Positions 3,354 to 20,000 of a stretch of DNA of 20,000 nt are shown here, piece by piece (positions within the stretch are counted from its first letter, which is position 1; every line of letters starts with the position of its first letter). A model generated the notes under the pieces. It was given only the letters and a program-made list of their open reading frames with translations, was not told the origin of the DNA and did not search any database. This DNA is from Chiloscyllium plagiosum (taxonomy: Eukaryota). Location of the stretch: assembly GCF_004010195.1 (NCBI RefSeq), contig NC_057718.1, positions 92,468,560 through 92,488,559 on the forward strand. The letters run 5' to 3'. The position numbers were made by a program, and so were the translations under genes.

Positions 3354-3810
3354 AATCGTAGAGTCATAGAGTCCCACGGCACGGAGACAGGCCCTTTAGC
3401 CCAAACTGGTGCATGCCTACCAAAATGTCCATCAACACTAAACCCATTTCCCTGTACTTGGCCCATATCCTTCTAAACCTTTCTTATAATTGTATTTGTC
3501 CAAATGCCTTTTAAATATTGTTAATGTACCTGCCTCCACCACTTCCTTTGGCAGCTAATTAGATAAATGTACCACCCTCTGTGTAAAAAAGTTGCCCCTC
3601 AGGTTCTCTTTTATTCTTTTTTTCTCTAACCTTAAACTGATGCCTTCTAGTCTTTGATTTCCCATTCCTGGGAAAAAGATTGAGTGCATTTACCCTATAC
3701 ATGCCTCTCATGATCTTACATAATTCCATAAGATTCCCCCAATCTCCTACGCTCAAAAGAAAAAAGTCCTAGCTTGTCCAACTGCTCCCTATAACTCAGA
3801 CCATTCAGTC
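3351..3810 (-). mobile_element. HER1/CR1 LINE 3' fragment B, inserted into fragment A
   Basis: Tail repeat tagagtcatagagtc at 3359-3373. Minus-strand translation includes GNLMELCKIMRG...LFP...KTRRHQFKV (ORF2 C-terminus). A further piece, cctggcaacatctttgtaaat, lies at 4137-4160. Confidence 0.88.
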
Positions 3811-3819
3811 ATAGAGTCA

Positions 3820-4136
3820 GAGAGGCTGAATAGACTGGAGCTATTTCCTTGGAGCATCAGAGGGTGAGGGGTGACCTTATAGATGTTTACAAAATCATGA
3901 GGGGCATGAATAGGATAAATATGTTCCCTGGGTGGGGGGCAGGAGATTTAGGGTGAAAGGGGAAAGATTAAAAAGGGACCTGAGGGGCAACTATTTCACG
4001 CAAAGGGTGATTCGTGAATGGAATGAGCTGCCAGAGGAAGTGTGGAGGTTGTTACAATTACAGCACTTAAAAGGTATCAGATGGGTATATGAATAGGAAG
4101 GGTATAGAGGGATATGAGCCAAGTGCTGGCAAATGG
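3820..4136 (+). mobile_element. CR1 LINE ORF2 C-terminal segment C in inverted orientation, without its own downstream tail
   Basis: ERLNRLELF...RGDLIDVYKIMRGMNRIN...RDLRGNYFTQRVIREWNELPEEV. Closely resembles the reverse complement of about 10690-11035 and stops abruptly at gctggcaaatgg. Confidence 0.88.
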
Positions 4137-5538: not shown

Positions 5539-6280
5539 TGTTACAACACTGGGTGAACCCCTCTGCTAATTAAACCAAACATCCAGAAAAGCTCACCTTG
5601 CCTCATAATCTGCTCAAGTATGAGTAACAGAGAACTCCCAGATTACAGTATTTAAAGAAAAAATATCAATTTATTCTTTAACTCTAAAATTGAACATTAA
5701 ATAAGAACTACTTACAACTCTACGCTTTCTTTCTCCTGGCTGCTTGTTATCTGCCTCCAACTCTATAACAATACGCTGTTCCACTAACCACCCATATTAA
5801 AATTATATTAACTTAATTTTCAAAACCAGTCAGTGGCGGTCGTCTCCACTGTCCTTTCTCTGGCTGGAAATCTATCTGGGTTGTCTTCGGTCTTTTATTT
5901 TAAAGATGTTTCTTATAAAAGCGGTATCTTTGATAGAGAGTGTTTTGCTCGGTTACTCTGGTGATGGCAGTTGGTCCTCAGTCTAGCTAACTCTCAAAAT
6001 GCCAGCTTCTTTGTACCTGACATATTGGATCGTCTCATTGGTTCGATGTTGGCAAAACAGTAAAATTCAAATTTGATTGGGTTTTACTATCTTGGAGCAT
6101 AATTTAAATTAGTGAAATTCAAATTGTTGTGAAAGCACGGTGACCAAAACTCAGATACTTGTTTCGCAGCCAAATATTACATATTTTCAATTTTCACATG
6201 ACAGGTGCCTGCAAGATCTCAGTTCAAAACCACTTTCACTCTCTCTTAAAAGTACAGTACACGCCTTCGACTTCATAACA
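5539..6280 (-). mobile_element. Solo LTR (about 740 bp), probably Gypsy-type or ERV
   Basis: Termini tgtta...taaca (TG..CA with short inverted ends). AATAAA on the minus strand (tttatt near 5671). Colinear diverged second copy at 7934-8691. No PBS or PPT at the flanks. Confidence 0.72.
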
Positions 6281-7111: not shown

Positions 7112-7910
7112 TGTAGTTACATGAATGAGGTCAGCCTGATGGAGCTGATAGAATATGAATACCCTGACTGGGGCTGATAACATGGTCCGATCAGGAAGTT
7201 CTGGCTGACAGATAGAAATAGGAGTGTCAGGGGTTCTGTTCACTCTAGGAGCTGATTTTGAGCAAGCTTGGTCTGTGTCATGTCCTGTGCATATGTAAAT
7301 AAAGATAGACTTGGTGATGGGATGCTAGTATTTGTCGAGTTACTTCAGTGGCGATGTAAGAAAAATGCGCCCCTGAAGAGGACCGCTCGCCGCAGTTGTC
7401 TTTGAGGTGGGATAAGCATTTTTGATATCATGCCACCATTTGACTCATTTCGATCCTGCCACTGAAAACTGGGCCCAATATATGGAAAGAATGCAATTTT
7501 TTTCCATGTAATTGACATTGGCGCAGATGAAAAGCAATGAGTAATTCTCCTGACAGCTTGTGGACCGCCACCTTTTTCAGTTATTAGGAGCCCAAGCCTT
7601 CTCTAATTCTCTAACTGGACCAGAAGCTACAGGCAAAAGAAGAGGCCTATATACCAGGACTTAGAGGAGGAAGGATGTAGTGATTAGAACGAGGTCAGTC
7701 AGGTGGACCTCATAGAATATCAGTTCCTTGATTGGGGCTGTTAACCTGAACCAATCAGGGAGCCCTGGCTGCCAGATAAAAACAGGGGTGCCAGGGTTCT
7801 GTTAAATCTCGGAGCTACCTCTGAGCTAGCTGGGTCCATGTCATGTGCTCTGAACATGTAAATAAAGGGTGTCTTGGTGATGGGATACTGGCCACTGTGG
7901 AGTTACTTCA
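7112..7910 (+). mobile_element. Internally deleted Ty3/Gypsy LTR retrotransposon (TRIM-like size): LTR 7112-7347, PBS about 7349, gag stub 7430-7592, PPT 7663-7675, LTR 7676-7910
   Basis: Two ~235-bp direct repeats tgtag...ttca, each with aataaa. PBS-like tggcgatg. Frameshifted gag start MPPFDS/FDPATENWAQYMERMQFF..ADEKQ*VILLTACG. PPT agaggaggaagga. Degenerate 5-bp TSD gtcac/gttat. Confidence 0.88.
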
Positions 7911-7933
7911 GTTATCTGTTATGCACTTCATAG

Positions 7934-8691
7934 AGTTACAACACTGCAGTGGACCCCTCTGTTAATTAAAGCAAAAACTGGGAAAAGCTCATCTTGCCTC
8001 GTAATCTGTTAATATATATGAGTGACAGAGAACTCCCAAATTCCAATATTTAAAGAAAATAATATCAATTAATTCTTTAAGTCTAAAAGTGAATAATAAA
8101 CAACAACTATTCACAGCTCGAAGCAACCCCCTTTCTCTGAACTGCTTATTATCTTCCTCCGACTCTAAAACAATACACTGTTCCAATTAAACACGTAGTA
8201 AAATTACATTAACTTAATTTCAAAACCAAAGCTGTTGTCGTTGGTGCCTGTCTTCTTGTGGATGAAGATCTCCCTTCATCATCTTCTCTCTTTTTACTGT
8301 GAAGATGTTTCATATGAAAAGGTACCTTTGATAGGGAGTATTTCGATGGCAGTTATTCACTCAATGGCAGTTACTCTGTCTGACTTTCAAACTGCCTGCC
8401 TTTTTCATACCCCCAGAATCGGATCATTGGTTCGATGTCGGCAAAAACAATATATTCAAACTCAATTGAGTTTTAATATCCTGGGGAATAATTTAAACTG
8501 GTTAAATTCAAATTATTGTCAAAATAGCAACCAACTCAGGTGTCTATTTCACTACCAAATGTTATATATTTTCAATTTTCCAGTACACTCAGACTGCCAG
8601 CTAGTCATATGGCAGGTGCTTGTAAGCTCTCAGTGCAAAACAACATTCACACTTTCTTAGAAGTATAGTACACACCTTCAACTTCAGAACA
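7934..8691 (-). mobile_element. Solo LTR, second copy of the family at 5539-6280
   Basis: Starts (a)gttacaacactg and ends accttcaacttcagaaca. Colinear with 5539-6280 (shared cagagaactccca, cattggttcgatgt, caggtgc blocks). Flanks atag/gtag fit a decayed 4-bp TSD. Confidence 0.72.
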
Positions 8692-9285: not shown

Positions 9286-9899
9286 GAACATAAGAACTAA
9301 AAGGCGGCACGGTGGCACAGTGGTTAGCACTGCTGCCTCACAGCGCCAGAGACCCGGGTTCAATTCCCGCCTCAGGCGACTGACTGTGTGGAGTTTGCAC
9401 GTTCTCCTCGGGTCTGCGTGGGTTTCCTCCGGGTGCTCCGGTTTCCTCCCACAGTCCAAAGATGCGCAGGGTCAGGTGAATTGGCCATACTAAATTGCCC
9501 GTAGTGTTAGGTAAGGGGTAAATATAGGGGTATGGGTGGGTTTCGCTTCGGCGGGTCGGTGTGGACTTGTTGGGCCGAAGGGCCTGTTTCCACATTGTAA
9601 TCTAATCTAATCTAATCATAATCTAAACTAGGAGCAGGAGTAGGCCATCTGGCCCTTCGAGTCTGCTCCGCCATTCAATAAGATCATGGCTGATCTTTTT
9701 GTGGCCTCAGCTCCACTTACCCGCCCTCTCACTGTAATCCTAAATTCCTTTATTGTTAAAAAGAATCGATCTTAACTTTAAAAACATTTACTGAAGTAGT
9801 GTCAACTACCTCACTGGGCAGGGAATTCCATAGATTCACAACCCTCTGGGTGAAGAAGTTCCTTCTCAATTCAGTCTTAAATCTGCTCCCCCTAATTTG
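9286..9899 (-). mobile_element. CR1 LINE 3' fragment (different tail family), interrupted in its tail by a SINE
   Basis: gaacataagaact...aggagcaggagtaggccatc...ccattcaataagatcatggctgatc. Minus translation SRFKTELRRNFFTQRVVNLWNSLPSEVV. Confidence 0.85.
9303..9625 (+). mobile_element. Young full-length HE1-type V-SINE
   Basis: ggcggcacggtggcacagtggttagcactgctgcctcacagcgcc with A/B boxes, V-domain, CR1-derived 3' end and (tctaa)n tail. CpGs are retained. Candidate TSD aacta (9295-9299 / 9626-9630). Confidence 0.95.
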
Positions 9900-10600: not shown

Positions 10601-12971
10601 TCATAGAGTCATAGAGATGTACAGCATGGAAACAGACCGTTCGGTCCAACCTGTCCAAGCTGACCAGATATCCCAACCCAATCTAGTCCTACCTGACAGC
10701 ACCCGGCCCATATCCCTCCAAACCCTTCCTATTCATATACCCATCCAAATGCCTCTTAAATGTTGCAATTGTACCAGCCTCCACCACATCCTCTAGCAGA
10801 TCATTCCATACACATACCACCCTCTGCATGAAAAGGTTGCCCCTTAGGTCTTTTTTATATCTTTTCCCTCTCACCCCAAATCTATGCCCTCTAGTTCTGG
10901 ACTCCCTGACCCAGGGAAAAGACTTTGTCTATTTATCCTAACCATGCCCCTCATAATTTTGTAAGCTCCTATAAGGTCACCCCTCAGCCTCCAAGGCTCC
11001 AAGGAAAACAGCTCCAGCCTGTTCAGCCTCTCCCTATAGCTCAAATCCTCCAACCCTGGCAACATCCTTGTAAACTTCACTATCCTATCTACCTGTGACT
11101 CCACTTTCAAGGAGCTATGAACCTGCACTCCAAGGTCTCTTTGTTCAGCAACACTCCCTAGGACCTTACCATTAAGTGTATAAGTCCTGCTAAGATTTGC
11201 TTTCCCAAAATGCAGCACCTTGCGTTTATCTGAATTAAACTCCATCTGCCACTTCTCAGCCTATTGGCCCATCTGGCCAGATCCTGTTGTAATCTGAGGT
11301 AACCCTCTTCGCTTTCCGCTACACCTCCGATTTTGGTGTCATCTGCAAACTTACTAACTGTACCTCTTATGCTCGCATCCAAATCATTTATGTAAATAAC
11401 AAAAAGTAGAGGACCCAGCACCGATCCTTGTGGCACTCCACTGGTCACAGGCCTCTAGCCTGAGAAAACAACCCTCCACCACCACCCTCAGTCTTCTACC
11501 TTTGAGCCAATTCTGTATCCAAATAGCTAGTCCTCCCTGTATTCCATTAGATCTAACCTTGCTAATCAGTCTCCGATGGGGAACCTTGTCGAATGCCTTA
11601 CTGAAGTCCATATAGATCACATCTACTGTTCTGCCCTCATCAATCTTCTTTGTTACTTCTTCAAAAAACTCAATCAAGTTTGTGAGACATGATTTCCCAC
11701 GCACAATGCCATGTTAACGATCCCTAATCAGTCCTTGCTTTTCCAAATACATGTACATCCTGTCCCTCAGGATTCCCTCCAACAACTTGCCCACCACTGA
11801 GCTCAGGCTCACCGGTCTATAGTTCCCTAGCTTGTCTTTACTGCCCTTCTTAAACAGTGGCGCCGCGTTTGCCAACCTCCAGTCTTCCGGCACCTGACCT
11901 GTGACTATCGATTATACAAATATCTCAGCAAGAGGCCCAACAATCACTTCTCTAGCTTCCCACGGAGTTCTCGGGTACACCTGATCAGGTCCTGGGGATT
12001 TATCCATGTTTAACTGTTTCAAGACATCCAGCACTTCCTCCTCTGTAAACTGGACATTTTGCAAGCTGTCACTATCTATTTCCCTACAGTCTACATCTTC
12101 CATATCCTTTTCCACAGTAAATACTGATGCAAAATACACATTTAGTATCTCCCCCATTTTCTGTGGCTCCACACAAAGGCCGCCTTGCTGATCTTTGAGG
12201 TGCCATATTCTCTCCCTAGTTACCTTTTTGTCCTTAATATATTTGTAAAAACCCTTTGGATNNNNNNNNNNNNNNNNNNNNNNNNNNNNNNNNNNNNNNN
12301 NNNNNNNNNNNNNNNNNNNNNNNNNNNNNNNNNNNNNNNNNNNNNNNNNNNNNNNNNNNNNNNNNNNNNNNNNNNNNNNNNNNNNNNNNNNNNNNNNNNN
12401 NNNNNNNNNNNNNNNNNNNNNNNNNNNNNNNNNNNNNNNNNNNNNNNNNNNNNNNNNNNNNNNNNNNNNNNNNNNNNNNNNNNNNNNNNNNNNNNNNNNN
12501 NNNNNNNNNNNNNNNNNNNNNNNNNNNNNNNNNNNNNNNNNNNNNNNNNNNNNNNNNNNNNNNNNNNNNTGCACCTTCTCTAGTAGGTACATCCACATAC
12601 TGAATCAGAAAATTGTCTTGTATACACTTAAGAAATTCCTCTCCATCTAAACCTTTAACACTATGGCAGTCCCAGTCAATATTTGGAAAGTTAAAATCCC
12701 CTACCATAACTACCCTATTATTCTTAAAGATAGCTGAGGTCTCATTACAAGTTTGTTTCTCAGTTTCCCTCTGACTATTGGGGGGGTTCTATAATACAAT
12801 CCCAATAAGGTGATCATCCCTTTCTTTTTTCTCAGTTCCACCCAAATAACTTCCCTGGATGTATTTCCGGGAATATCCTCCCTCAGCATAGCTGTATTGT
12901 TATCCCTTATCAAAAATGCCGCTCCCCCTCCTTTCTTGCCTCCCTTTCTATCCTTCCTGTAGCATTGTTCC
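10601..12971 (-). mobile_element. 5'-truncated HER1/CR1 LINE with disrupted ORF2 (APE endonuclease + reverse transcriptase)
   Basis: Endonuclease motifs YRKDR..GGG, GLYYRTP, VGDFNFPNIDW. RT motifs [49 protein letters not shown]-terminus QRVVCVWN. Tail tcatagagtcatagag. Frameshifts and an internal deletion near 11075. Possible TSD tgttgtc (10596-10602 / 12972-12978). Confidence 0.96.
12262..12569. other. Assembly gap (308 N) inside the CR1 copy
   Basis: Run of N flanked on both sides by colinear CR1 ORF2 sequence. Confidence 0.99.
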
Positions 12972-14998: not shown

Positions 14999-16260
14999 TT
15001 CTACCCTGTCTTGCCATTTATGCCAGGCAGATTATCATAGTTGTCAGCGGTAATTAGTCGAAAGGGTGAACATGTTGCTGTGCAGCACTGTGCTGCAATA
15101 ATGCCATGCCTATAAGTGGCTCATGTGGCCATCACTGTGCATGTACTCCAGCTAAATGGCCATGTCTGAAAACATGAGAGGCGTAATCCGTGGTCAAGTC
15201 AAGGAGACTCTTATCCATCAGTGGGTATCATCACAGTCAGTCAAGCAAAGCATCCAATCTCAATCCAGGGCTTAGACACGGTCCATCAGCTGCTAGGAAT
15301 TGTCAGGGTCAGGGGTTCAATATCATTCAATACTGGGAGTGGGTCACAGCTGGTCCTGCAGGTCTAATGCAACCAGTCTGGGGATCAGTAGCTGAGTTGG
15401 AGAGCTACACAGAGATCAGTTAGGGATCTGGTCAGTGATCAGTCAAAGCTGACCTTTGAAATCGATGAGGGTTTTGGGGCAAGGTCAGTTCTCGAAATCT
15501 GCTCTCTGAATTCAAGGTAGTTTATCAGAAGGCACCCCTGTGGTTGAGAAATTGTGAAAGCCACTTATGAGGTTGGAGGCAGCATGCTGGGATGCAGAGT
15601 GGAAGACAGTTGTGATGAGGGTATTGTTCATTGCATATTGACCATAGTCCTCCCTGCAGCAGAAGTAATCACAGACAACCTTAAAAGTTTCACCAGTGGG
15701 CCACAATTTACTAAACAATCCAAAATCTTTTCAGCTGCACAATAGCGGAGAGCTGACTTCTTCTCACCTTACATTGTAAGTACTTGCCATCATCCTCATT
15801 GGGTGATTTGGGTTGAGTGGGGGCGGGGGCAACATTTCAGCAATCTTACCACATTTAGAAACTCCTGCTAGCTCTTGCTGTGTGCATCAGAATAAAGTTC
15901 TCTATATCAAAACTCCACGTGCAGGCATTCCATGACGCTCCTTGTTAGAGTTCTCCATGTCCCCTGAAAGGAGGACAGTGCTAAACTATTATTTTTGTGT
16001 GAAACAAGTGCTTACTGCTATGTTAATAAGTACCTGTTCTGTTTCTGATAGTCCCCACACAAGTTCATTGGAAACGTGACCAACGGACCCAACCACAGCA
16101 GACATGACCATCATTGTGTCTATACTGCTCCGAGGTACAGAGGAATTGAGGAGAAACAAATGTGTTAGCATGCCCAGTGGCTGCTGATCAGTCTGCACAT
16201 GAGGAGCTGCAGCTGGAGATCCTCTCAAGTTGTTCTGTCTGCAATAAAGACAGTGAGATT

Positions 16261-16968
16261 CTTGTTGCCAGCTATTTCAACCTTGTTCCCTAGCCAACCT
16301 CTCTGATTCAGGCTTACCGCAGTGATCCAATTAAGCTTAGCACAAGTTGGAAGAACAGCACTTCATTTTCTGCTTGGAAACTCTATAGCCTTCTGGATTC
16401 ATTATTGAGTTCAACAGTTTTAGGGTTTGAGGCACCTTTTCTCATGTTCTTACCCCAAACCCCACACACGAGGCCTTGTTATCACATGGTCCGCTATTAC
16501 ACACTACCCATTGTTAGCCACTTAGAGTCCCCATTAGCAGCAATTCATTCTTCCATGTTGATCATATCTCCTCCTTTATCTGTCCAACTCTTCTGCTCTC
16601 TCTCTTTGAGTTCTATTTCCATCCATACTTTACCCTTTGCCCTCACCCTAATCTTCTGCTTAAAAAGCAACCTTTTCCTAGCTACCACCAGTTTTGAAGA
16701 AGGATCACTGGACCTGAAATATTAACAACGATTTCTCTTGTCAAAAAGTGTGGCGCTGGAAAAGCATCCAGGGAGCAGGAGGAATTCCTGATGAAGGGCT
16801 TATGCCTGAAATGTCGACTCTCCTACTCCTCAGATGTTGCCTGACCTGCTGGGCTTTTCCAGCGCCGCATGTTCTGACTCTGATCTCCAGCATCTGCAGT
16901 CCTCACTTTCTCCTAATGATTTCTCTTCACAGATGCTGCTAAAATTTTCCAGCAATTTCTGCTTTTGT
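16261..16968 (+). mobile_element. Penelope-like element 3' fragment (end of GIY-YIG ORF + pseudo-LTR), interrupted at 16740-16914
   Basis: Degenerate HKLEEQHFIFCLETL*PSGFIIEFNSFRV* (PLE C-terminal E..I..L.T..P.GLN motif). Pyrimidine-rich UTR. Decayed hammerhead ttgaaga-aggatcactggacct-gaaa at 16694-16719. Ends cacagatgctgc..ttttccagcaatttctg. Confidence 0.78.
16740..16914 (+). mobile_element. Non-coding fold-back PLE-derived insertion #1 with hammerhead core
   Basis: Inverted arms gtcaaaaagtgtggcgctggaaaagc / gcttttccagcgccgcatgttctgac. CTGATGA 16788-16794 and GAAA 16808-16811. Tail tgatctccagcatctgcagtcctcactttctcct. 13-bp TSD aacgatttctctt / aatgatttctctt. Confidence 0.85.
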
Positions 16969-17288
16969 TTATGGTTCTTTCATGTTTTTATTCCAATAGC
17001 TGAGAGTTGGGAGAAGTGAGCGTTCTATGAACTTAATTTGGTTGAATGGTTTTATTTATTAATTTTTCATATTTCCTGTTGGTCAATAAAAGTTAACATT
17101 TTTCACCACCAAGACTGGCTCTACAGCAGTACTACAGATCAAGCTATTCAGGTCCGAAAGGACACAACTGCTAGTCTGGGGCTGCGGCAGGTGATGAAGG
17201 AACCAATAAGAGGGGAAAACATTCTTACCTCATCCCTACCAATCTGCCAGTTGCAGATACATCTATCCATGACAGTATCGGTAAGAGT

Positions 17289-17478
17289 CAAGAGTGTGGT
17301 GCTGGAAAAGCACAGCAGGTCAGGCTGTATCGAGGAGCAGGAGAATCGATGTTTTGGGCATAAGCCCTTCATCAGGAATGGCATTCTGATGAAGGGCTTA
17401 TGCCTGAAACCTGCTGTGATTTTCCAGCACCACACACTTGACTCTGATCTCAACCATTTGCAGTCCTCACTTTCTCCT
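17289..17478 (+). mobile_element. Non-coding fold-back PLE-derived insertion #2 (same family as #1) with two damaged hammerhead cores
   Basis: Arms gagtcaagagtgtggtgctggaaaagcacagcagg / cctgctgtgattttccagcaccacacacttgactc. Centre gcataagcccttcatcaggaatg-g-cattctgatgaagggcttatgc. Same tail as #1. TSD gtatcggtaagagt / atttcagtaagagt (11/14). Confidence 0.88.
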
Positions 17479-17662
17479 ATTTCAGTAAGAGTGACCACTG
17501 CACAGACTTTGTGGAGATGCAGTCCCGCCTTCTTCATGTTATGTGGCACTATCACTGTGCTAAATAGGACATGATTTGGAGATGCCGGTGTTGGACTGGA
17601 GTGTACAAAGTTAAAAATCACACAACACCAGGTTATAGTCCAACAGGTTTAATTGGAAACAT

Positions 17663-17696
17663 ACTAGCTTTCGGAGCGAAGCTCCTTCATCAGGTG
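17663..17696 (-). ncRNA. Minimal type I hammerhead ribozyme (minus strand)
   Basis: Reverse complement reads cac-CUGAUGA-a-GGAGC-uuc-GCUCC-GAAA-gc-UA-gu. Catalytic core intact. Confidence 0.75.
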
Positions 17697-17703
17697 ACAC
17701 AAT

Positions 17704-17738
17704 CACCTGATGAAGGAGCGTCGCTCCGAAAGCTAGTG
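17704..17738 (+). ncRNA. Minimal type I hammerhead ribozyme (plus strand)
   Basis: CAC-CUGAUGA-a-GGAGC-guc-GCUCC-GAAA-gc-UA|GUG. Stem I CAC/GUG, 5-bp stem II, vestigial palindromic stem III (AGCU). Predicted cleavage after A17735. Confidence 0.8.
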
Positions 17739-19415
17739 TGTTTCCAATTAAACCTGTTGGACTATAACCTGGTGTTGTGTGATTTTTAACTGAATAGGAC
17801 AGACTTTGAACAGATCGAACAACTCAAGACTGGGCATCCACGAGGCGCTGTGGGCCATTAACAGCAGCAGAATTGTATTCCAACACAGTCTGTAATCTCA
17901 TAGCCCAGCATATCTCCCAGTCAACCATTATCATCAAGCCAGGGGATTAACCTGGTTCAATGGAGAGTGCAGGAGGGCATGCCAGGAGCAACAAGAGGCA
18001 TACCCGAAGATGAGGTGTCAACCTGATGAAGCCACCAAACAGAACTACTTGCATGCCAAACAGCATTAGCAGCAAAGAATAGACAAAGCTTAGCAATCCC
18101 CACAACTAACGGATCAGATCTAAGCTCTGCGGTCCTGCCACATTCAGTTGTGAATGATGGTGGACAATTAAACAACTCACTGGTGGAGGAGGCTCCACAA
18201 ATATCCCCATTGTCAATGATGGAAGAGCCCAGCAAAACAGTGCAATAATTAAGGCTGAAGCTATCGCACCAATCTTCAGCCAGAATTCCCAAGTGAATGA
18301 TCCATCTCTGACTCCTCCAGTGGTCCCCAGCATTACAGATACTAGTCTTCAGCCAATTTGATTCAGTCCACATGATATCACGAAACAGGTGGAGGCACTG
18401 AATACTGTAAAGGCTATAGGTCCTGACCACATTCTGGCAATAGTACTGAAGACTTGTGCTCCAGAACCTGCTGCTCTCTTAGCCAAGCTGTTCCAGTACA
18501 GATACAACACTGGTATCAACCCGATAATATGGAAAATTGTCCAAGTATGTCCTGTACATAAAAAGCAGGACAAATCCAACCTGGCCAATTACCGCCCCAT
18601 CATTCTACTCTCGACCATCAGTATAGTGATGGAAAGTGTCATCAATAGTGCTATCAGGCAGCACCTGCTCAGTGATGCACAGTTTGGGTTCTGCCAGGGC
18701 CACTCAGCGTCGGACCTCATTACAGCCATTGTCCTAACATAGACAAAAGAACTGAATTCCAGAGGTGAGGTGAGAGTGACAGCCCTTGACATCAATGCTG
18801 CATTCGACCAAATGTGGCTTCACTTGGGTATCGGGGCCAAACTCTCCAGTGGTTGGAGTCAAAGTTGACACATAGAAAAATAGTGAGGAAGTCAGTCATC
18901 TCAGTTCCAGGACACCTCTGCAAGAGTTCCTTCGGGTAGTGTCCTTAGCCCAACCATCTTCAGCTGCTTCATCAAAGACCTTCCCTCCACCATAAGATCA
19001 GAGTGGGGATGTTCGTCAATGATTGCACAATGTTCAACATCATTCACGACTCCTCTGATACTGAAGCAGTCCATGATCAAATGCAACAAAATCTGGATAA
19101 TATCCAGGCTTGAGCTGACAAGTGGCAAGTAACATTTGCACCACAATTGCCAGGCTGTGACCATCACCAATAAAAGACAATCTCACCACTGCCCCTTGGC
19201 ATTCAACAGTGTTGCCATTACTGAATCCACCACTATCAACATACTGGGGGTTATCATTGACCAGAATCTCAGCTGGACTCACCACATAAACACAGTGGCT
19301 ACAAGAGCAAGTCAGAAGCTAGGAATACTGCGCCTCAAAGCCTGTCCACCATCCAAATGGCACAAGTCAGGAGTGTGATGGAATACTCTTCACTTGCCTA
19401 GATAAGTGTAGCTGG

Positions 19416-20000
19416 AAATGTGTTGCTGGAAAAGCGCAGCAGGTCAGGCAGCATCCAGGGAACAGGAGAATCGACGTTTCGGGCATAAGCCCTTCTTCAG
19501 GAATGAGGAAAGTTTTTCCAGCAGGCTAAGATAAAAGGTGGGGAGGAGGGACTTGAGGGAGGGGCGTCGGAAATGTGATAGGTGGAAAGAGGTCAAGGTG
19601 AGGGTGATAGGTCAGACTGGAGTGGGGGCGGAGAGGTCAGGAAGAAGATTGCAGGTTAGGAAGGCGGTGCTGAATTCGATGGATTAGACGGAGACAAGGT
19701 GGGGGGAGGGGAAATACCTTGTCTCAGTCAAATCCATCGAACTCAGCACCGCCTTCCTAACCTGCAATCTTCTTCCCGACCTCTCCGCCCCCACCCCAGT
19801 CTCACCTATCACCCTCACCTTGACCTCTTTCCACCGATCACATTTCCGACGCCCCTCCCCCAAGCCCCTCCTCCCTACCTTTTATCTTAGCCTGCTGGAC
19901 AAACTGTCCTCATTCCTGAAGAAGGGCTAATACCCAAAACGTCGATTCTCCTGTTCCCTGGATGCTGCCTGACCTGCTGCGCTTTTCCAGCAACACATTT
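19416..20000. mobile_element. Large fold-back PLE-derived insertion #4 (related to #1/#2): arms of about 285 bp, 15-nt loop; runs off the window
   Basis: 19416-19700 is the near reverse complement of 19716-20000 (aaatgtgttgctggaaaagcgcagcaggtcaggc / gcctgacctgctgcgcttttccagcaacacattt). Loop ggggggaggggaaat. A hammerhead core lies in each arm. Confidence 0.92.
19470..19504 (-). ncRNA. Minimal hammerhead ribozyme core (minus strand); the mirror copy at 19916-19943 has GAAA changed to AAAA
   Basis: Reverse complement auuc-CUGAAGA-a-GGGC-uuau-GCCC-GAAA-c-GUC|gau. Palindromic ACGU at stem III; stem I weak. Confidence 0.65.

Follow-up and report, generated by a model that had tools for sequence, protein, structure and literature searches.

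What kind of element leaves several short palindromes with hammerhead ribozyme motifs side by side in an animal genome? The question is raised by a stretch of 20,000 nucleotides from Chiloscyllium plagiosum (contig NC_057718.1, positions 92,468,560 to 92,488,559), here called the window and numbered from its first letter. This animal DNA is rich in A and T and full of repeats, and the end of the window holds four fold-back insertions, elements 1 to 4. We consider it highly probable that these hairpins are dead-on-arrival ends of endonuclease-bearing (EN+), probably Neptune-type Penelope-like elements (PLEs) of two families, that each was built during its own insertion, and that the relic of a further PLE family hosts the first of them.

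Anatomy of the fold-back insertions

The original prediction had placed four fold-backs from two sequence families between positions 16740 and 20000. All four were confirmed at these positions, each with its arms head to head. Elements 1, 2 and 4 form family A (80-91% between elements), element 3 represents family B. The predicted tails of the three complete elements were also recovered, with lengths of 36, 34 and 37 nt for elements 1, 2 and 3. Target-site duplications (TSDs) were present on all three, yet they measured 11-13 bp instead of the 12-14 bp proposed. Of 1500 boundary pairs drawn at random, 3 had flanks that matched over at least 11 nt. All three complete elements had the same layout: between two TSDs lie an inverted arm without tail, then the direct arm and then the tail. 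The whole insertion comprised 175-230 bp. A one-sided tail of 30-40 bp beside an inverted, 5'-truncated copy, as expected of PLEs, was seen in each of the three, as were short TSDs of variable length.

Element 1 is bounded by 13-bp TSDs at 16727..16739 and 16915..16927 (both on the plus strand, one mismatch). Its inverted arm (16740..~16781, minus strand) has a 17-nt internal deletion, lacks a hammerhead core and stops a few nucleotides 3' of the predicted hammerhead cut. The direct arm (16784..16878, plus) starts 4 nt before C3 of the core at 16788-16815 and is followed by the tail at 16879..16914 (plus). In element 2 the left TSD (17278..17288, plus) pairs with the right TSD at 17482..17492 (plus) over 11 bp with one mismatch, or over 13 bp with two; the last 5 nt of the left copy also fit the element end. 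Both arms start 5 nt before C3. The inverted arm (17284..17380, minus) carries a G12A change in the core, and a 33-nt deletion takes the cleavage site out of the direct arm (17382..17445, plus), which precedes the tail at 17446..17479 (plus). Element 3 lies on the minus strand with its tail at the left. It consists of the left TSD (17560..17571, plus, 12 bp with one mismatch), the tail (17572..17608, minus), the direct arm (17609..17697, minus), the inverted arm (17703..17791, plus) and the right TSD (17790..17801, plus), which overlaps the arm by 2 nt. Its arms of 89 nt each are 98% identical, and each contains a complete minimal hammerhead with C3 at 17693 and 17707, respectively; the fold energy of the hairpin corresponds to z = -24.6.

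Element 4 is the longest. Its inverted arm (19410..19715, minus) spans the end of an open reading frame (ORF), a 3' untranslated region (UTR), an initiator-like A at 19504 and a complete hammerhead with C3 at 19500 and the predicted cut at 19473/19472. The direct arm (19716..20000, plus) lacks 15-16 nt at the 5' end by comparison, carries G12A and is truncated by the end of the window; no tail or TSD of this element is visible. The aligned arms (19416-19700 and 19716-20000) differ at 15 of 285 nt.

The surroundings provided an independent check of the boundaries of elements 2 and 3. Both interrupt a broken ORF2 relic of a long interspersed nuclear element (LINE; 17082..19409, plus) with an RVT_1 match at 18362-18826 (E 8e-9), and element 4 adjoins the end of this relic. 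Pfam did not detect the endonuclease portion of the LINE in the relic. Subtraction of each insertion together with one TSD copy brought the LINE frames into register with the downstream reverse transcriptase (RT) frame across both elements (chance 1/9). Because elements 2 and 3 sit inside the relic and element 4 next to it, the cluster is a nested insertion into older repeats.

The deletions of 17 nt in the inverted arm of element 1 (16755-16770) and of 33 nt in the direct arm of element 2 (17409-17412) are both flanked by short direct repeats. They may reflect RT jumps or later instability of the palindromes.

Linkage to a Penelope-like element

The host of element 1 was an older, fifth PLE relic (16230-16971) of a third family, C, which the original prediction had missed. 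Its 5' part (16230..16430, plus) is what is left of the C-terminal end of a PLE ORF for a GIY-YIG endonuclease, interrupted by stops and one frameshift. The frame 16281-16427 gave phmmer matches to four proteins (E 3e-6 to 1e-4), and tblastn of the ORF relic reached E 1e-10, while a Pfam run directly on the window did not detect it. Named relatives were from rays. The 3' end of family C (16660..16726, plus) shows an A/T-rich stretch at 16660, an A at 16690 and a decayed hammerhead core from 16694; we take the first two to be TATA-like and initiator-like motifs. It is 73-76% identical to family A. Element 1 was inserted a few nucleotides downstream of this hammerhead. The relic resumes after the right TSD of element 1 and ends tail-less at about 16971. 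The best repeat in its flanks, 8 bp with one mismatch, was not accepted as a TSD.

A profile built from the four family C matches retrieved 341 relatives, several of them with a GIY-YIG domain (PF01541). With one such relative as query 72 long proteins were found, most annotated as RT (PF00078) and several also as GIY-YIG; Pfam confirmed the assignment for two of them. The corresponding search for longer proteins from a different relative yielded none among 295 candidates, and a protein scan of viral contigs confirmed none of 45. All 12 nearest full-length relatives listed had a CX2-5CxxC linker between RT and endonuclease, the linker of Neptune and Nematis (PMC8557442). The linker region of the ORF lies outside the remnants in the window, and as Nematis shares the motif the clade is not fixed by it.

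Family A was connected to such an ORF by the tip of element 4. There, 19656..19715 (minus) reads as the last ~19 codons and the stop of a PLE ORF, i.e. as the residues following the GIY-YIG end. Scored with a matrix from 18 homologue C-termini this site was the best of 39,966 six-mers with 19.6 bits versus 13.2 bits for the next, and the same F-x-I-S/P-P run occurred in 20 of 63 proteins. The statement that none of the four insertions encodes protein was thus not quite right. By homology, families A and C appear to lie downstream of an ORF with RT and, at its C-terminus, a GIY-YIG domain. The expectation that a PLE with both domains shares these units was borne out for families A and C in the form of homologous kin; family B remained without an ORF link.

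Relatives in metagenome contigs

We examined 95 relative loci from metagenome contigs and metagenome-assembled genomes (MAGs), which are probably host DNA of marine invertebrates. The loci L081-L095 are contigs filed in bacterial MAGs that carry animal-type PLE ORFs; 11 of these 15 came from one assembly, which suggests contamination by host DNA. In a strict scan, a hammerhead followed the ORF end in 27 of 59 loci with room downstream against none of the 59 within the 700 nt of coding sequence upstream. A looser scan gave 67 core sites with a core nearly the same as that of family A; a tail was present at 28 sites, missing at 37, and two sites were cut off. Eight loci contained direct and inverted copies. 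Exactly one tail was found in five of them and none in two, while one was left undecided by the script. The tail was on the inverted copy in four and on the direct copy in one of the five clear pairs. TSDs of 11-16 bp bordered five of the eight paired loci, after the TSD and microhomology calls for L056, L073 and L086 had been dropped because element-internal or duplicated sequence was picked; the arm edge of L037 was read by eye. Inverted copies started at most 11 nt from C3 in three of the eight. Of the 67 sites, which are related copies and not independent, 49 have a TATA-like box between -39 and -43 and 56 an initiator-like A at -7.

The tails of elements 1 and 2 (16900-16914 and 17465-17479) and those of the relative loci L001 and L032 have a pyrimidine run inside them or at their end. 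In the tails of relatives it precedes AG and resembles a splice acceptor. Introns are known from the 5' UTRs of PLEs.

Hammerhead motifs

All four elements had been predicted to contain hammerhead cores. The sequence CUGAnGA was indeed present in at least one arm of every element, but in the strict scan the full core was restricted to four of the seven motif-bearing arms: the direct arm of element 1, both arms of element 3 and the inverted arm of element 4. Element 2 has no complete core, owing to G12A in one arm and the missing cleavage site in the other; G12A also affects the direct arm of element 4, and the inverted arm of element 1 lacks the motif. Rfam returned no hammerhead among 16 matches at E≤1, all of which were sub-threshold microRNA (miRNA) or small nucleolar RNA matches to hairpins.

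Covariation was assessed with 15 sequences from the window and the relatives. Paired cells amounted to 77%, a score favoured by the fact that the structure had been drawn from the same 15 sequences, two of them misaligned, and seven of nine pairs had changes on both sides. None of 500 shuffles scored as high, and slid alignments gave 20-41%. By this covariation the motifs appear ribozyme-like, as minimal type I hammerheads with helices I and II and a palindromic helix III. In 44 relative copies the conservation of core and flanks was mostly 0.9-1.0 for both, with the anchor inside the flank and the core index off by one. A large subfamily of relatives (L030, L032, L081-L094) has a U4C change in the core; T was found in 57% of the 44 copies.

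In elements 2 to 4 the motif is decayed or paired with its own antisense arm. In the minimum free energy (MFE) fold of element 1 a long helix closes the loop in which the core lies. There (16781-16830) the inverted arm pairs just 3' of the predicted cut and extends helix I. Reads of run X21 covered both strands and showed no pile-up of molecule ends, from a library unsuited to show cleavage or a start site. The hammerheads are inherited parts of the PLE pseudo-long terminal repeat (pLTR) and probably inactive in these copies.

A fixed 5' edge in the window and in public reads

The starts of the arms were not scattered. Relative to C3 they lay at -4 for the direct arm of element 1, at -5 for both arms of element 2 and at about -4 for both arms of element 3, so that five of the six arms of elements 1 to 3 share a start at the 5' edge of the hammerhead. 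The junction is thus fixed on one side, and these arms are not random 5' truncations. Family C has its initiator-like A at -4 as well, with the A/T-rich stretch 30 nt upstream.

Public DNA runs of two organisms contained 59,840 and 52,451 contigs matching one arm of element 4, which shows that family A is very abundant; the summed read depth on the family A unit (about 2e7) is not a copy number. In 372 raw reads of run X21 the tail of elements 1 and 2 followed a unit of the element 4 type. Upstream of ~19504 read depth dropped 9-fold (X1), 18-fold (X10) and 10-fold (X21). Loose ends with a near-random consensus (agreement 0.31-0.33) piled up behind 19503-19505, 3-5 nt upstream of the CUGA core (24 of 818 listed). 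Among the 15 joints listed out of 34, four of the five opposite-strand ones had one side at 19495-19509, their partners being scattered over 19454-19472 at depths of 23-217. Of the 39 inserts, 12 were listed, and nine of these had one side at 19501-19505. Head-to-tail joints from 19504 to 19419, such as direct pLTRs may give, occurred in 4+1 contigs; such a tandem arrangement was not seen inside the window.

The A at 19504 belongs to an initiator-like motif, judged by what we take to be the initiator consensus (chance 1.3% per base), and lies 4 nt before C3. The first base of inserts leaving 19504 fits a copied cap G in five of six cases, some of which may share loci, and is a hint only. The fixed 5' edge would probably correspond to the transcription start of the PLE. 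A start site within the pLTR is known for Penelope and Chlamys (PMC2377424, PMC8557442), and a TATA plus initiator-like pair for the pLTR of a rotifer element (PMC3846280). Against a general rule counts Drosophila virilis, with a TATA-less promoter and an intron between start and hammerhead (PMC4209133, PMC2377424). The step in read depth may in part stem from subfamilies with diverged upstream sequence, as hinted by one G-rich loose end.

Proposed mechanism

The original prediction left two alternatives, short PLE end-insertions with a hairpin formed at each event or a self-propagating class of hairpins. The first is supported by the ORF linkage, the design of the relatives with RT and GIY-YIG and the varied junctions in the reads. 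Its argument from differing fold-back points holds for the partner side of the junctions, which varies, but not for the other side, which is fixed 4-5 nt upstream of C3.

We propose that the target would be nicked at two points 11-13 bp apart and a cDNA primed from each nick, the first at the end of the tail and the second at the tail-less site, in some cases aided by 2-7 nt of pairing between target and RNA. Joined head to head, the two cDNAs would give the layout observed. As the two arms are copies of one and the same unit, this takes either two RNAs or two pLTR copies. Some arms, i.e. both arms of element 4 and the inverted arm of element 1, may have ended by premature stalling, and the other five in elements 1 to 3 by run-off at the RNA 5' end just upstream of the hammerhead. 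We consider the chances of such a 'strong-stop-like' ending roughly balanced. Slightly more doubtful is its extension to most genomic copies of these families. Instead of random 5' truncations these would be run-off cDNAs, begun by RT at the tail sites of the RNA's first pLTR and completed ~95-130 nt later when it leaves the template at the capped 5' end, at the initiator 4-7 nt before the core, and the hairpins would be such products joined at two target nicks.

Several of these steps have been studied with a purified PLE protein. The protein cuts the target on both strands and elongates both; its reverse transcription begins inside the RNA, at two sites between which the tail lies, and hammerhead cleavage is dispensable in vitro (PMC11167929). 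Overlap of target and element at the tail-less end was 5 nt in element 2, 2 nt in element 3 and 0 nt in element 1 (chance of at least 2 nt, 0.07). Five usable relative loci had 7, ~4-6, 0, 0 and 0 nt. Its presence in some and absence in others indicates that pairing may help but is not required.

Several points weigh against the proposal that the hairpins are PLE ends assembled at two nicks. The zero overlaps in element 1 and three relative loci belong here, as does the reported initiation at sites without homology to the cut DNA (PMC11167929). In element 3 no piece of an ORF was seen, and architecture and hammerhead design alone match family B to PLEs. The ORF link of families A and C is by homology, and in the data analysed no autonomous element of family A or B from this genome was seen. 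The exact family A hammerhead pattern at the DNA level had no match in metagenome and viral contigs. The joints and inserts listed are a part of the total, and unitigs can lose high-copy junctions. Finally, the junctions 19457-19503, 19454-19495, 19504-19463 and 19503/4-19470 recurred in both read organisms.

Alternative explanations

For a head-to-head arrangement of PLE repeats self-priming has been proposed in print (PMC3846280), which also speaks against our proposal. Here the PLE origin is the same, but a single cDNA would fold back at its 3' end, prime itself and then be resolved by the endonuclease. The near-symmetric apices of elements 2 and 3 with loops of 1-5 nt speak for it, and for symmetric cases it is a fair rival. 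As a general explanation we regard it as unlikely. Direct copies linked to an ORF also often end without a tail (37 of the 65 sites scored), so that tail-less ends look like true priming sites; in the clear pairs of the relatives the tail was mostly on the inverted copy (four against one). In element 4 the tail-less arm exceeds its partner in length, and in element 2 it has 33 nt that are missing from the partner, although for element 2 a later deletion could explain this. In addition, extension by the protein has been seen on both strands in vitro (PMC11167929).

Could the hairpins instead propagate themselves, the whole fold-back being transcribed and re-inserted by PLE RT and GIY-YIG? Non-autonomous PLE derivatives exist (PMC8557442; bioRxiv 10.64898/2026.07.22.740005). 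The best candidate would be element 1 with its junction near the predicted cut and its core kept in a closed loop in the MFE fold. A junction resembling that of element 1 recurs in the reads: the junction 19503/19504-19470, close to it, made up three of the 12 listed inserts and was found in both organisms. Such modest recurrence can be explained by the fixed 5' edge and shared old loci, however, and the listed junction depths are tiny compared to the summed depth on the unit. Three different junctions in elements 1, 2 and 4 and the absence of the upstream TATA-like promoter region from elements 1 to 3 likewise make a self-propagating class very improbable, and the motif in elements 2 to 4 is paired with the antisense arm.

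Terminal inverted arms, TSDs and a very high copy number would also fit MITEs (miniature inverted-repeat transposable elements), i.e. DNA transposons. Yet symmetric ends with a fixed short TSD were not what we found; a one-sided tail of 34-37 nt, TSDs of 11-13 bp and the homology of ORF end and hammerhead to RT elements largely refute this reading. An assembly error or later rearrangement is no more credible: the arms of element 4 differ at 15 of 285 positions and are therefore not a duplicated assembly, and strand-switch joints occurred in two independent DNA runs. Taken together we give this group of explanations next to no weight.

Other repeats in the window

Outside the cluster the window contains two copies (78%) of a SINE-like (short interspersed nuclear element) repeat of ~310 bp at 1912-2218 and 9302-9618, and two diverged copies (73%) of a ~750-bp repeat at 5540-6280 and 7935-8691. 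Direct repeats of 238 bp (77%) at 7112-7349 and 7676-7912 enclose ~330 bp and look like an internally deleted LTR element; Pfam gave no match for the one frame tested. LINE 3'-end pieces were seen at 3356-4136 (a pair in opposite orientation) and at 10601-12260, adjoining an assembly gap (12262-12569). A MITE-like inverted repeat of 34 bp (88%) with a 160-bp spacer is located at 1670-1703 and 1863-1896.

Comparison with known systems and significance

In LINE-1 twin priming both target nicks prime, which gives rise to an inversion; the pieces do not overlap, unlike the arms described here. Retroviral minus-strand strong-stop DNA is a short run-off cDNA made by internal priming near the RNA 5' end. 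The architecture of the hairpins and their relatives is in print for PLEs (PMC8557442, PMC3846280, PMC8969392). Compared to canonical EN+ PLEs, the insertions of elements 1 to 3 consist of two ends only, and a single point at the hammerhead 5' edge is where most arms, and most copies at read level, begin.

The system closest in biochemical terms is Poseidon of Anolis (PAc), for which two internal RT starts a tail-length apart and cutting and extension of both strands were reported in vitro, with a minimal hammerhead ~100 nt upstream of the RT start sites (PMC11167929). PAc belongs to another clade, its ORF starts inside the hammerhead, and the sections of that report available to us contain no inverted-arm or run-off model (PMC11167929). 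Minimal PLE hammerheads share the core boxes, one additional nucleotide in front of helix II, the palindromic 15.2-16.2 pairs and a short helix I; opposite-strand pairs 100-700 bp apart were noted, and cleavage is weak and limited to dimers (PMC4209133). In comparison, helix II is only 4-5 bp here, and the head-to-head layout leaves the motif without a partner on the same strand with which it could fold as a dimer.

Non-LTR retrozymes are likewise non-coding, hammerhead-bearing and pLTR-related, but they are head-to-tail tandem arrays (bioRxiv 10.64898/2026.07.22.740005), whereas the elements in the window are single head-to-head hairpins with TSDs. Retrozymes were rejected as candidates: no head-to-tail array was present, the arms being head to head, and Tandem Repeats Finder detected a single 14-bp repeat of 1.9 copies in 16000-20000.

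The finding is therefore a known PLE insertion architecture in new families, with the fixed 5' edge as the only element that we did not find in print. No description of it turned up in the literature searched, and the coverage plots in Fig. S2 of PMC11167929 may already show a 5' step. Its value is mainly in annotation, where such hairpins attract sub-threshold matches to miRNA precursors and could be taken for MITEs by mistake. The fixed edge also bears on the PLE integration cycle, which is still unvalidated beyond nicking and the start of the first strand (PMC11167929), and it predicts that capped 5' ends of PLE RNA map to the base where the short genomic copies start. If the run-off reading is true, the formation of inverted pLTRs and tails would be explained, and the genome would preserve, as an extensive fossil record, the positions of the PLE transcription start and of both RT start sites.

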